Shown: piece after piece, positions 54,389 to 63,897 of the stretch
Numbering within the stretch: the first letter of the stretch is position 1
How the letters are laid out: every line of letters begins with the position of its first letter
From: Balanoglossus misakiensis
Lineage: Eukaryota; Animalia; Hemichordata
Assembly (NCBI GenBank): GCA_040954595.2
Contig: JBECUI020000043.1
Coordinates: 34,784-98,783 of the forward strand
Direction: 5' to 3'
DNA length: 64,000 nucleotides
Made by a program: the position numbers and the translations under genes
The notes under the pieces: generated by a model
The model's input: the letters and a program-made list of their open reading frames with translations, nothing else
What the model was told of the DNA's origin: nothing
Database searches by the model: none

Positions 54389-57013
54389 ATGAAACTTCTA
54401 CGGACAGTACTTGTTCTAAGTTGCATCTCAGTGGTGCTAGCAAGACCATCAAAGGATCAAAGAAATAGGGCATGTCTTGTCGACGAAATCCAAGTGCAGG
54501 AGAACTTTGATGTTGAACAGGTATGGCACAAGTTACTTCAACTTTTCAATGTTTTTATCACTGTGGCAATTACTCTAGGAACTTTGCAAAGTTTTATCAC
54601 GAAAACAATGGCTATTGGTCCACTAAAGGGAATTATGGGAACTCTGTTTTAAGTGAGGTTCCATTACCCACAGTCCCTCCACTGTTGCGACAAGACATAG
54701 TCAACTCAATCGGTGAGGTCCCCATTCAACTCAATCGTCCCCGTCTGACCTGCAGCTGTAAACGTGAAATGACGTGGATATCGTCCGATTGAATATCCCA
54801 TCCATCAAGAGATTCTTGCATGCAAACTGGCACTACCAGGCAGAAGTTTACTGGTCGCAACAACCATATAATATATCGGTCAAGACCTATTGGCTTTCGC
54901 GATAGCGGTGTGCTGATTTCACGAAACCACTTTTTGTGACGAAATGGAGCACTTTTTAAAGTTTTCGAGAATGGTTGACAACTTATGTCAAGAAAAAAGA
55001 GCATCATCATCATCATCATCATCGTCATCATCAGAAAGCCAGTCCCCTAACCCGTGAACGGAGCAAAAGAAGGTTAATTTTTGCAATTCTGTCCAGGCTA
55101 TCAGAACAGTTACGTCGGGTCGAGAGCACCAACATTTAGAAATTCACCGAAAATTATTTCTAAGACCGGACATAGCTATCAATCGTTTTATATTATTTCA
55201 TGATTTGTTGTAAACAAGATAACGTCACGAAACACCATCGAGTCAGAGGTCAAGAGGGATTTCCGTCCACCTTTACTGTACTATCTAAAGATGACATCTT
55301 TAAAAAACACATTTTTCACACCTCATGATAACTTATGTCAGAGAGGTTTCTGCAATTATCATGTCTATAATTCACTTTTTGACCATATTATATAGTCATG
55401 AAGTACACAACAGTGAATTAAAACGAACCTGCTGTAAAGAGGTCGTAGTTTACGATGATTTGAAAAGTGGCCAGTTTGTGAATTGTATAGGTGCCTGGTT
55501 GAGAGGCGATTTCAATGGACATGCAATAATTCGCTCGTAATGATGTATGGCTCCGATTGGCCTTTGAACTTCATATCGATTTTTCAGGACGGAAATAGGA
55601 TACCGACATTGTTTCGTTGACTGGTAGTCTAAATACCAATGACTGAAATACGTACAATTGTTTGGTTGAAATAAATCACATCATGCCATGTTTTATCTCT
55701 ACTGATTATCGATCTGCTTGTGTTACAATGATTTGTCATGTCGTGAATTGTGTATAAAGTAGGTTAAGTCTGCCATCGGTCAACCGTCTAATAAGTTATC
55801 GGTGATGACAAAGTCTCCGTCTGTCAAGTAATATGGTACAAGAATGGGGATTTCGACTGGGTCCACTTTTCACTCGATTTACCCAAATGTGTCATGAATC
55901 GTACAAGCACTTTGAGTCGTCCATATGGCTTTGAGGGAGATTTTTCCCTTTAACCTGTACATTGGCACTTTTTATTGCAGTATATGGGGGAATGGCACGA
56001 GGTCCGTCGCCGACAATCTGTTGACATTCTGCCCGACAAACAGATGTCAGAATACCACCTGCAGGAAAATGGTCATATCGGAATGGGAATTCGGGGAGTG
56101 AGCATGTAAGTTGGTTTGTCGCTCATTAATTAAATCCAATGTTTCTTTACTTTGGTATGATTTTCCCTTACAATAATGAAAACTGTATTCTCTTCTTTAA
56201 GGGGCGAAACATGTCTGGGAAATGATGATAGATTCAGATTTCTGGGAATACCTGGAACTGACAACCCTGCCAAAATGGTCGTCAGGATGTTACCTCCGAG
56301 TTCAGGGCGCCCTCCACAGGGACAGAGACCACCACATCCACCACAAGGGCAAAGACCACCAGGGGGAAACCGTCCACCAGGACAGAGACCACCAGGCCAC
56401 CCACCATCGCATGCAAGGCCCAATATGGAAAACATGATGCCAGTGGACCAAGAAGGTAAAGGGTGCTGGACCCCCTGCATGGCTTTCATTCTTTATTATT
56501 TTAGATCTATGTAAGGAAACTTGATAAGAAAACTTTATCAGTCATCATCCTTCATCTCGCTAGCAAGATGAAACGAGAGGTTGCAATGTTTGACTAACTC
56601 TTTCGCTCAACTGTATTTCAAACAGGAAGCTATTGGGTGTTGAGTACAGACTACAACAGTTACTCCGTGGTATACAGCTGTAACGAAATCACGGATGACG
56701 GCACCTGTAGCAACGACCACACGATGGTATGGATTCTCAGCCGTACAGCACAGTTGCCAGATGACGTCACGGACGTCATCGATGACGTCATAAGCTCAGT
56801 GTGCCTCGACCCCGCGGAAGTCAACATCATTCCTAAGGGTGAGTGAACTTTTTTTCCTACGTTGCAATGAGTTTGTAGTTGGCAAGATAAAATAAACTAC
56901 TGTCCAAATTTCATGATTTTTGTAGACTCATATTATCCAAATTATGGTAACCATATCTTGTGATTTTTTTTACTGAAAACGGATATTGTATTCCAAACAA
57001 ATTTGCAGACTGC
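54389..57013 (+). CDS. Signal peptide + lipocalin domain 1 (RBP4-like, with Pro-rich insertion)
   Basis: [24 protein letters not shown] (SCR1 GxW); [35 protein letters not shown] (SCR2 TDY); VWILSR (SCR3); VCLDP...DC. Confidence 0.92.
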
Positions 57014-63000: not shown

Positions 63001-63897
63001 CGTTACTGACAATGCTGGTAAGTTAAGTATTACAGGCTATAAATTTCTGCTGAGATTAGAAGTCTGTATTATTGCCTTGTCATGAATACAGGTACAATTT
63101 TGAACTTTTGAGTCGCAACTACTTTATGAAGCCAGTTTTATACCCTTTTTGAAAGGCACCAATATTGACTTTCTATTTCATTATACACATATTGACTGGT
63201 CATGAGGGCAACAGCATACGTCTGTTTCCCTGAGGGACTGTAAGTCGCTCCAAAACAGTCTGCTTTATCAAGGCCGGTCTCTGTCACAGACGACATCACC
63301 ATATTACGGTGATGATATCATGACTAACTGACTACTGGGGTGTTAAATATCATTTTTGCCTTTTTAACAGAACCTTGTGAAAGTACATCAAATGAAGTTA
63401 TAGGTAGGTGCATAACTTCATATCCCATAGAAATTGATATAGACTAAATTCTCATTTTGTAAAAAAAATCTTACACAACAGTGATGATGATAGTTGTTGT
63501 TGTATTTCTCTTATTAGGAGGCGAGGATTCTGAAGAAGAACCAACAACACCAGGTATGAAATGATGTCTCAAAATGAGTTCAGTTTTTACAACCTTAACG
63601 TAAATGCCAAAATATACAACTAGAAATCAGTTTACTGCAGTGGTAAATGTTGTTTGATTTCTCATCATTGGCTCAGTTAAACATCAGAAACATTGTTCTG
63701 AAAGTACAGTAGTATGCAATATTATTTTGTGGTTTAATTTTGTATTTTTTAGGAGAGTCTAAGTGCCTGAAGCAGAAACAGGCAATTGAACATCGTTTAA
63801 AACGTGCAAAGGCACAAGGTATTGAGATAGCAGATTTGACACCACCATCTTGTGATAAAAATGGCAGATACAGAAGAAAACAGTGCAATCTTTTCTT
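54389..63897 (+). CDS. Secreted mosaic protein: signal peptide + 5 RBP4/purpurin-like lipocalin domains + 2 LDLa + thyroglobulin type-1 domain (3' end outside the window)
   Basis: Hand-built exons: 54389-54520, 55981-56105, 56202-56455, 56626-56838, 57009-57079, 57434-57564, 57703-57824, 57911-58123, 58239-58280, 58463-58587, 58814-58950, 59173-59270, 59605-59823, 59984-60007, 60126-60248, 60359-60414, 60536-60663, 60875-60993, 61113-61325, 61505-61573, 61756-61884, 62068-62138, 62240-62373, 62572-62696, 62805-63017, 63371-63403, 63518-63553, 63753-63897. Total 3500 nt, open frame, all phases compatible; introns GT-AG except one GC-AG. N-terminus [18 protein letters not shown] is a typical signal peptide. 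Confidence 0.9.
57028..58247 (+). CDS. Lipocalin domain 2 (RBP4-like)
   Basis: [70 protein letters not shown]...DCC. Confidence 0.93.
58543..59991 (+). CDS. Lipocalin domain 3 (divergent, His/Met-rich)
   Basis: [62 protein letters not shown]...GVC. Confidence 0.88.
59375..59500 (-). mobile_element. Probable short Penelope-like retroelement remnant in intron 12 of the lipocalin gene
   Basis: Inferred from the minimal type I hammerhead, a hallmark of Penelope-like element pLTRs. No RT or GIY-YIG ORF is present; boundaries are approximate. Confidence 0.5.
59448..59498 (-). ncRNA. Type I minimal hammerhead ribozyme (Penelope-like element type)
   Basis: Minus strand: AGUCUC [CUGAUGA] GUGAGUC-CAGU-GACUCGU [GAAA] CAA-UG-UUG [UA] GAGAUU. 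Intact catalytic core, 6-bp stem I, 7-bp stem II, very short stem III, GUA cleavage triplet. Confidence 0.85.
60126..60248 (+). CDS. LDL-receptor class A module 1 (single phase 1-1 exon)
   Basis: [37 protein letters not shown]: six Cys with the DC-x-DGSDE signature. Confidence 0.95.
60359..61513 (+). CDS. Lipocalin domain 4 (RBP4-like)
   Basis: [78 protein letters not shown]...DRC. Confidence 0.93.
61612..61673 (+). mobile_element. Possible piggyBac-type MITE end fragment (TTAACCC...); related ends at 62396-62407 (+) and 57604-57615 (-)
   Basis: TTAACCCTTTCA at 62396, its exact reverse complement at 57604, and TTAACCCGTTTACCAC at 61612. TTAA followed by CCC is the piggyBac terminus signature. 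No complete element is seen. Confidence 0.35.
61756..61884 (+). CDS. LDL-receptor class A module 2 (single phase 1-1 exon)
   Basis: [37 protein letters not shown]. Confidence 0.96.
62068..63379 (+). CDS. Lipocalin domain 5 (RBP4-like)
   Basis: [72 protein letters not shown]...EPC. Confidence 0.91.
63753..63897 (+). CDS. Thyroglobulin type-1 domain, N-terminal exon (continues past the window)
   Basis: SKCLKQKQ...[17 protein letters not shown] fits C...P-x-C-x3-G-x-Y-x3-QC. The CWCV half is expected downstream and is not visible. Confidence 0.85.

Follow-up and report, generated by a model that had tools for sequence, protein, structure and literature searches.

From the exon structure of a 64,000-nucleotide (nt) stretch of Balanoglossus misakiensis DNA (contig JBECUI020000043.1, positions 34,784 to 98,783 of the forward strand; hereafter the window), we have rebuilt a plus-strand gene that carries five lipocalin domains in a single open frame, each divided by four introns in a pattern resembling that of the vertebrate retinol-binding protein 4 (RBP4) gene. 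The explanation that we favour, and hold to be very probable, is that this is one gene with five RBP4-type domains, that it arose by tandem duplication of a whole RBP4-type gene, and that its predicted product is a secreted carrier of hydrophobic ligands.

One gene with five lipocalin domains

The gene has 28 exons in the window, from 54389 to 63897, and then runs off the window end. When these exons are rebuilt from their coordinates and joined, the frame holds 1166 codons with zero stops, and the 27 introns in the window have AG acceptors throughout (27/27) and GT donors in 26/27 cases. The sole GC-AG intron of the gene (62139-62239, donor GCAAGT, with the GC at 62139-62140) follows an exon end that is backed by colinear tblastn with LOC144440893 of the enteropneust Glandiceps talaboti. 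That protein (P0001, 1223 residues) is colinear with the model at 53% identity over 1194 aligned positions, and the partial protein LOC100368303 (P0002) of Saccoglossus kowalevskii is colinear with it at 47% identity. A tblastn search of the window with P0001 reproduced the exon ends, and found no further lipocalin exons elsewhere in the window.

The encoded order is a signal peptide (predicted by eye), lipocalin domains 1, 2 and 3, a low-density-lipoprotein receptor class A (LDLa) module, lipocalin domain 4, a second LDLa module, lipocalin domain 5, an acidic linker and a thyroglobulin type-1 module. The Pfam matches in the window exons (Lipocalin, two Ldl_recept_a and Thyroglobulin_1) are all above their cut-offs, and the module set of Glandiceps P0001 is identical. 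The two LDLa modules score 49.2 bits (E 6e-13) and 55.0 bits (E 9e-15) with PF00057 (cut-off 24.1), possess the six Cys and the acidic SDE cluster of the class, and occupy one phase 1-1 exon each. The thyroglobulin type-1 module (PF00086, 29.3 bits, E 6e-07, cut-off 20.6) covers profile positions 1-39 of 67 and its remainder lies beyond the window; in the Glandiceps orthologue it is near-complete (positions 1-60 of 67), and that protein extends about 55 residues past the point at which the window ends.

We read the 28 exons as one protein-coding gene of the enteropneust, in a model built from sequence and homology alone. A model of this kind leaves some room for five separate tandem genes, with the single long frame an artefact of assembly by hand, but that prospect is hardly credible. 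The frame stays open across all the codons and introns counted above, the internal domains have neither a signal peptide nor a start of their own, and domains 1 and 2 share an exon (57009-57079), in which the last Cys of the former is followed by the first Cys of the latter. Moreover, the NCBI models of the two other enteropneusts predict the same single protein.

Introns of the five domains and of RBP4

The intron phases are 0-2-1-1 in all five lipocalin domains. The first intron follows the NFD-x-x-x segment (phase 0), the second lies 4-6 residues ahead of the second Cys (phase 2), the third three residues ahead of the W in W-I/V-x-x-TDY (phase 1; domain 3 is without that W), and the fourth 1-2 residues ahead of the last Cys (phase 1). 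The exon with the TDY motif measures 213 nt in domains 1, 2, 4 and 5 and 219 nt in domain 3. Both the four intron places with their phases and these exon lengths had been claimed in the initial annotation, and the rebuilt gene model confirms them; the span that it gave, 55981..63017, stands as a core, with domain 1 beginning upstream (54389-54520) and the last-Cys exon of domain 5 lying downstream (63371-63403). Because the four 213-nt exons share only 40-48% of their DNA, and the five domains only 22-37% of their protein sequence with one another, the equal exon length does not come from recent copying. The domains stand no nearer to one another than each does to mammalian RBP4 (25-31%).

Of the six exons of human RBP4, five are coding, and the protein is 201 residues long (PMC7432399). 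The splice-donor mutations c.111+1G>A (PMC3506607) and c.248+1G>A (PMC8006376) place introns after c.111 and c.248, and the intronic variants c.355+837 and c.356-25 (PMC7432399, Table 2) place another after c.355; the first three coding exons are therefore 111, 137 and 107 nt long, with phases 0, 2 and 1. The fourth coding intron was in no paper that we found: variants of the form c.568+/c.569- were sought, with none for that junction, and the available parts of PMC6402760 and PMC4487233 held nothing on RBP4 coding exon sizes. In Macaca, the RBP4 isoform P0151 is the same as the canonical P0152 through residue 189 and diverges from residue 190 (Gly to Asp, both codons starting with G), which fits a fourth junction either in codon 190 (phase 1, exon of 213 nt) or after codon 189 (212 nt). 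Hence, where the initial annotation gave human RBP4 the same 0-2-1-1 pattern and an exon of 213 nt, the first three introns are borne out by papers, the phase of the fourth fits the isoform comparison, and the exon length becomes 212 or 213 nt.

In the alignment, intron 1 falls in an identical column in RBP4 and all five domains. The distance from intron 2 to its Cys is 5 residues in RBP4, inside the range of the window domains, and intron 4 lies two residues ahead of the last Cys in RBP4 and four of the domains and one residue ahead in domain 1. The RBP4-type gene structure, namely 0-2-1-1 phases, an exon unbroken from TDY to the helix and the last Cys on an exon of its own, is found in the window domains within 0-3 alignment columns, and we infer that the four introns are homologous to those of RBP4.

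Other lipocalin genes differ in their intron count. In ApoD the coding sequence is spread over four exons, an arrangement conserved in chordates (PMC8530192). ApoD is therefore one coding intron short of the full set, and the initial annotation's reading survives the comparison with ApoD that was named as its refutation. A PTGDS-like lipocalin of amphioxus has five introns in phases 0,2,1,1,1 and was called different from the vertebrate Rbp4 genes (PMC3184775). A set of four coding introns in phases 0-2-1-1 agrees with RBP4 in number, and with neither ApoD nor PTGDS. The intron without a counterpart in ApoD is reportedly the last one.

Several points weigh against reading this pattern as a mark of RBP4. 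Introns 2 and 3 of RBP4 sit 3 and 1 columns off those of the window, in gapped loops of the MAFFT alignment, and the exact shared length of 213 nt is partly the sum of two offsetting one-residue differences. The fourth intron of RBP4 is taken from an isoform comparison, not from a gene record, with 212 and 213 nt both allowed, and a fish pair (P0161/P0274) is discordant, diverging five residues earlier than the Macaca pair. Internal duplication copies introns to every repeat, and five repeats are one observation, not five witnesses. Introns 1-3 are, moreover, reportedly common to many lipocalins, and therefore only the fourth intron and the absence of an intron inside the TDY exon are discriminating.

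Disulfide cysteines and the barrel fold

Each of the five domains is a lipocalin barrel by its sequence, with Pfam Lipocalin or Lipocalin_2 matches on single exons and on the orthologue, and with the GxW and TDY motifs in 5/5 domains. All five also have six Cys that align with the six of RBP4, including the Y-x-C-x8-C of the third disulfide, and that are presumably paired in the same way. The RBP4 disulfides join Cys4 to Cys160, Cys70 to Cys174 and Cys120 to Cys129. In a 25-sequence alignment that includes vertebrate RBP4, the Cys columns C65, C119, C128 and C161 are invariant, and the columns C3 and C174 nearly so. The third disulfide is described as a distinct feature of RBP4 (PMC8420045), and mallard ApoD has four Cys and two disulfides (table row in PMC8530192). 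With six Cys and five coding pieces per domain, the window domains lack both the four Cys in two disulfides and the four coding exons of the ApoD type.

Against the PDB, a whole domain of Glandiceps P0001 scores highest with RBP4 (59 bits, E 3e-15), followed by ApoD (45.6 bits), AMBP (21 bits) and PTGDS (18 bits), and its first-ranked matches are 17 distinct RBP sequences. For the TDY exons of the window, the best PDB match is an RBP in 4/5. This single-exon signal is, however, weak in three domains, and counts on the other side: domain 2 matches sandercyanin best, by 0.4 bits, domain 5 gives a tie at about 19 bits, and domain 1 scores 32 bits with ApoD and human RBP4 alike.

The score of domain 2 suits another explanation, in which the domains are generic ApoD-like lipocalins whose introns 1-3 are family-wide, whose fourth intron is a by-product of gene joining spread by internal duplication, and whose likeness to RBP4 is coincidental. 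The fold comparisons lean the same way. For domain 4 of the orthologue, an AlphaFold model (pLDDT 88.9, eight strands and a helix) retrieved a Foldseek list filled by lipocalins, with ApoD (2hzr, E 1.4e-11, TM 0.73) at the top and RBPs just behind (TM 0.76-0.78), and the predicted fold leaves RBP4 and ApoD unseparated. In a language-model atlas the nearest clusters are ApoD-like ones of arthropods, with a value of about 0.90 that counts only as a lead, and the repeats do inherit their introns from one another. We nevertheless consider this explanation improbable. Five of five domains have the RBP4 cysteines and not the ApoD pairing pattern, the whole domain has 13 bits more with RBP4 than with ApoD, and a branch with 99/98 support, described below, sets the domains and RBP4 apart from ApoD-like rows. 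In addition, the last Cys comes after the fourth intron, as in RBP4, whereas joining within the terminal exon of an ApoD-like gene should have left that Cys before the intron.

Phylogenetic placement and relatives

A HMMER scan of 1.84 billion representatives gave 326 matches at E<=0.001, and the best 150 of the 326 were used. Domains were cut with a hidden Markov model from the window's five domains, keeping near-full-length ones only and at most three from any array of more than seven domains, and the 27 rows of seven proteins that were near-identical isoforms or cluster members (P0255-P0261) were removed, leaving 205 rows. For the IQ-TREE analysis (LG+C20+F+G4), 64 of these were picked by hand, comprising all hemichordate and echinoderm rows, the named RBP4-like rows and 14 from the other side of the tree.

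In the FastTree of 205 domains, a branch marked 95* unites 68 of the 70 third-disulfide rows with vertebrate RBP4. The IQ-TREE result agrees: a 99/98 clade of 50 rows unites the five window domains with Macaca and fish RBP4 and with rows from echinoderms, amphioxus, molluscs and annelids; outside it stand the 14 ApoD-like rows, among them ApoD (Culicoides), ApoD-like (Teleopsis) and lepidopteran rows. In both trees, then, the domains group with vertebrate RBP4 apart from ApoD. Two features of the trees must be set against this. They sample the best 150 matches of one query and hold no PTGDS, AMBP, ApoM, C8G or identified vertebrate ApoD, and inside the clade the window domains are not nearest to vertebrate RBP4.

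The second feature is one ground for a further alternative: an old bilaterian stock that shares only ancestral features with RBP4 (three disulfides, four introns) and whose ligand is something else (a carotenoid, a bilin, a fatty acid or a steroid). Vertebrate RBP4 would then be a conservative survivor of that stock, and the window gene would have no particular link to retinol transport. The window domains divide between two subclades that also contain rows from molluscs, annelids, echinoderms and amphioxus. Domains 3-5 share a clade (97/91) with the final domains of the sea urchin and starfish proteins and with amphioxus, Owenia and Haliotis rows, and domains 1-2 show a weak grouping with mollusc RBP4-like rows and a crinoid domain. 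Vertebrate RBP4 groups elsewhere, with weak support (81/89), alongside 'purpurin-like' domains of molluscs and N-terminal domains of echinoderms. Identity of the window domains to mammalian RBP4 is only 25-31%, and an entrance-loop stretch common to vertebrate RBP4 and purpurin is, as read from the alignment, not kept in them. We rate this alternative a serious one, at somewhat less than an even chance; it accepts the shared cysteines, introns and clade, and its differences from the RBP4-type explanation are confined to function and to the definition of 'RBP4-type'.

Among the enteropneusts, the window domains pair with the same-numbered domains of Glandiceps and Saccoglossus, in starred clades for domains 1, 3, 4 and 5; for domain 2 the window-Glandiceps pair has 100/91 and the trio with Saccoglossus 98/62. 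From this domain-by-domain pairing it follows that the five-domain chain predates the split of these enteropneust lines. Forcing the 14 hemichordate domains into a single clade lowers the log-likelihood by 27 units (p-AU 0.039, for a group named post hoc), which is suggestive of some domain duplications being older than the hemichordates.

Names were obtained for 26 of the 30 relatives looked up. Word-index protein searches added little: two gave one match each, and in a third most of the 104 matches were to LDLa alone. Single-domain relatives are auto-named "retinol-binding protein 4-like" (Crassostrea virginica, Antedon), "Purpurin" (Holothuria) or "purpurin-like" (Haliotis, Ylistrum), and multi-domain relatives occur also in Haliotis, Nucella, Potamilus and Owenia. 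The Glandiceps and Saccoglossus orthologues, both with the five-domain order of the window gene, are labelled "uncharacterized", and the multi-domain deuterostome family is unnamed in public annotation. Of these two, the Saccoglossus model ends within domain 5, and the Glandiceps protein has two LDLa modules and the C-terminal thyroglobulin type-1 module. Elsewhere in the deuterostomes, Strongylocentrotus purpuratus LOC584238 has six lipocalin domains and a thyroglobulin type-1 module, Acanthaster LOC110987537 two lipocalin domains, an antistasin and two thyroglobulin type-1 modules, Anneissia LOC117116713 two lipocalin domains and two thyroglobulin type-1 modules, and Branchiostoma floridae LOC118421882 (P0136) one six-Cys lipocalin domain and an antistasin. 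Antistasin is thus found in the starfish and amphioxus relatives and not in the window gene, and no LDLa module was found by Pfam in these four echinoderm and amphioxus proteins.

Protease-inhibitor-type modules (thyroglobulin type-1 and/or antistasin) follow the lipocalin domains in all invertebrate deuterostome relatives scanned (P0107, P0113, P0117, P0136, P0001). The B. floridae protein lies in the 97/91 clade with domains 3-5, and is not the 0,2,1,1,1 lipocalin of PMC3184775 that stands behind the view, as given in that text, that amphioxus lacks Rbp4.

How the repeats may have arisen

The exons at the domain junctions carry a record of how the domains were put together. At 3/4 junctions the last-Cys exon has stayed apart from the first-Cys/NFD exon, and at two of these a phase 1-1 LDLa exon lies between them; the fused last-Cys/first-Cys exon occurs at the domain 1-2 junction only, where it measures 71 nt. 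The last-Cys exons of the window are 24-69 nt long, and the matching last coding exon of RBP4 would be about 38 nt. Because the junction exons are mostly still separate, we favour tandem duplication of a whole gene followed by in-frame joining, as the initial annotation had proposed. An RBP4-type gene that already had its four coding introns would have been duplicated in tandem and fused in frame. On this view the last coding exon of that gene would have given rise to the short last-Cys exons, and its first coding exon, stripped of the signal peptide, to the first-Cys/NFD exons. The intron between last-Cys and first-Cys exons would have received the LDLa modules, each as a phase 1-1 exon.

The shared introns, cysteines and clade imply that the RBP4 type predates vertebrates, and from the sequences compared here it is probably older than the protostome-deuterostome split. 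The pre-vertebrate gene type that had been suggested thus gains from the six Cys in 5/5 domains and from the 99/98 clade; what changes is that the type appears older and wider than supposed, and is partly labelled as such in databases already. A broader proposal has, in our view, about an even chance of being right: that RBP4 is the vertebrate survivor of an ancient bilaterian lineage with three disulfides and four introns and did not arise within chordates from an ApoD-like gene, that this lineage persists in hemichordates, echinoderms, amphioxus, molluscs and annelids, and that in invertebrate deuterostomes it is regularly fused, in many cases as several copies, to protease-inhibitor-type modules.

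Comparison with known lipocalin systems

RBP4 and the window domains are alike in the lipocalin fold, in the GxW, TDY and Arg motifs, in the six Cys and in the four 0-2-1-1 introns. They also share an unbroken exon of about 213 nt across TDY, the third disulfide and the helix, and RBP4 is the best PDB match of the whole domain. They are unlike in architecture: RBP4 is a single domain of about 180 residues, one 21-kDa barrel, whereas the window protein has five barrels with LDLa and thyroglobulin type-1 modules in one frame, and its linkers replace the C-terminal tail that follows the last Cys of RBP4. RBP4 binds all-trans retinol, pairs with transthyretin and delivers to STRA6. ApoD and the insect ApoD-like proteins have the same fold at an equal Foldseek score, and the NFD, GxW and TDY motifs, and probably the first three introns, in common with the window domains, from which they differ in cysteines, in coding exons and in standing on the other side of the 99/98 branch.

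A parallel in architecture is AMBP, in which a lipocalin is fused to protease-inhibitor modules in one secreted precursor (PMC8420045). Lipocalin and protease-inhibitor-type modules in one chain are common to AMBP and the window gene, although the AMBP lipocalin matches the P0001 domain at only the 21 bits given above. AMBP itself combines a single barrel with Kunitz modules and is split by cleavage into two proteins. The window linkers, in contrast, are by eye without dibasic sites. A polyprotein cut into single lipocalins was considered for the window gene and dropped on the same linkers, and on domains 1 and 2 being only five residues apart between their flanking Cys.

Many barrels per predicted chain are also seen in lepidopteran polylipocalins such as Leptosia nina CAK1550414 (3464 amino acids, 19 domain matches); these differ in having no third disulfide, in their 3-4 Cys per domain and in lying on the ApoD/bilin-binding side of the tree. 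A polylipocalin of the annelid Owenia fusiformis, with 5687 amino acids and 22 domain matches, has the third disulfide in some of its domains. Such very long polylipocalins (P0106, P0108, P0109, P0110) may be real arrays or merged gene models.

Exon coordinates and other features of the window

All exons of the gene lie on the plus strand. Exon 1 (54389-54520, 132 nt, ending in phase 0) holds the ATG, the signal peptide predicted by eye, and the first Cys and NFD of domain 1, and aligns with the N-terminus of Glandiceps P0001. Domain 1 continues in a GxW exon (55981-56105, 125 nt, phase 0 to 2), a second-Cys exon (56202-56455, phase 2 to 1) and a TDY exon (56626-56838, 213 nt, phase 1 to 1). 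The last of these contains TDY, Cys3, Cys4, the Arg of structurally conserved region 3, the helix and Cys5, and has a Pfam Lipocalin match (E 1e-06) and an RBP as its best PDB match (39 bits). The second-Cys exon is 254 nt long because of a Pro/Gln/Gly-rich low-complexity insert (about 56290-56425), which stands at the same place in Glandiceps and Saccoglossus with a different sequence.

The junction exon (57009-57079, 71 nt, phase 1 to 0) fuses the last Cys of domain 1 with the first Cys and NFD of domain 2, and is followed by the GxW exon (57434-57564, 131 nt), the second-Cys exon (57703-57824, 122 nt) and the TDY exon (57911-58123, 213 nt) of domain 2. The TDY exon matches Pfam Lipocalin at E 6e-08, and in the PDB sandercyanin at 37.0 bits and RBP at 36.6. 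The last-Cys exon of the domain (58239-58280, 42 nt, phase 1 to 1) contains a Cys-Cys pair. This C-terminal pair gives the domain a seventh Cys, which is kept in 3/3 enteropneusts and could be a free thiol or form an inter-chain bond.

Domain 3 begins with an exon that holds a linker and the first Cys (58463-58587, 125 nt, phase 1 to 0), in which NFD is degenerate. Its GxW exon (58814-58950) has 137 nt, as does its counterpart in human RBP4 (c.111/c.248; PMC3506607, PMC8006376), and is followed by the second-Cys exon (59173-59270, 98 nt). The PDB matches of the 219-nt TDY exon (59605-59823) are RBPs in 17/17 cases, the best at 23.6 bits, and no Pfam match was found for it at E<=1. The domain closes with a last-Cys exon (59984-60007, 24 nt, phase 1 to 1), after which comes the first LDLa module (60126-60248, 123 nt, phase 1-1, PF00057).

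In domain 4, the first-Cys and NFD exon (60359-60414, 56 nt, phase 1 to 0), the GxW exon (60536-60663, 128 nt) and the second-Cys exon (60875-60993, 119 nt) precede a TDY exon (61113-61325, 213 nt) whose best PDB match is an RBP (E 2e-07), with sandercyanin as the next family (E 0.05). The last Cys shares its exon with a Pro-rich linker (61505-61573, 69 nt, phase 1 to 1), and the second LDLa module follows (61756-61884, 129 nt, phase 1-1, PF00057).

Domain 5 starts with a first-Cys exon (62068-62138, 71 nt, phase 1 to 0) ahead of the GC-AG intron. Its GxW exon (62240-62373, 134 nt) and second-Cys exon (62572-62696, 125 nt) are followed by a TDY exon (62805-63017, 213 nt) with weak PDB matches (RBP 19.6 bits, sandercyanin 19.4), and by a last-Cys exon (63371-63403, 33 nt, phase 1 to 1). 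The acidic linker exon (63518-63553, 36 nt, phase 1 to 1) and the first part of the thyroglobulin type-1 module (63753-63897, PF00086) complete the model, and the gene continues past the window.

Outside the gene, a satellite of 87-bp units (53.7 copies, 98% matches) occupies positions 1-4688 and runs off the window start, and short (ATAC)n and (AGAA)n runs come after it at 4736-4908. A (CTAT)n microsatellite of 79.5 copies lies at 42534-42851. On the minus strand, an open stretch at 25460-25843 contains a LIM domain (PF00412, E 5e-18) and is likely an exon of a neighbouring gene on that strand. The other 17 long open stretches upstream of the gene gave no Pfam match, and Rfam gave no match in the window.

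Discussion

The protein is predicted to be secreted. It is highly likely to be a large multivalent extracellular carrier of small hydrophobic ligands, one per barrel. Retinoids are a tentative suggestion for the ligand, and a doubtful one. The LDLa and thyroglobulin type-1 modules are predicted to tether the protein to partners or to inhibit proteases, in parallel with AMBP.

These proposals touch on the age of RBP4, whose origin has been placed in early chordates, from an ApoD-like ancestor (PMC8420045). Amphioxus has been concluded to be without an Rbp4 counterpart, and the origin of RBP4 has been called unclear (PMC3184775); the available part of PMC8834484 treats only the cellular RBPs of echinoderms. 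That invertebrate relatives exist was already apparent from the automatic names "RBP4-like" and "purpurin-like"; the present analysis adds the evidence from gene structure and the multi-domain family, on which a non-exhaustive literature search found no paper.

The gene also offers a clean case of module shuffling, with the in-frame fusion of whole-gene units and the insertion of LDLa modules in phase 1-1 exons as its proposed steps. If the ancient bilaterian lineage proposed above is real, the intron before the last Cys, hitherto taken for a chordate gain, would date back at least to the origin of the deuterostomes, and there would be a candidate retinoid carrier in animals said to lack one. 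A hemichordate gene with the cysteines and gene structure of RBP4, and with relatives in five phyla, provides candidate extracellular carriers of retinoids or carotenoids outside the vertebrates, and the age of plasma retinol transport becomes a question of binding by defined domains.

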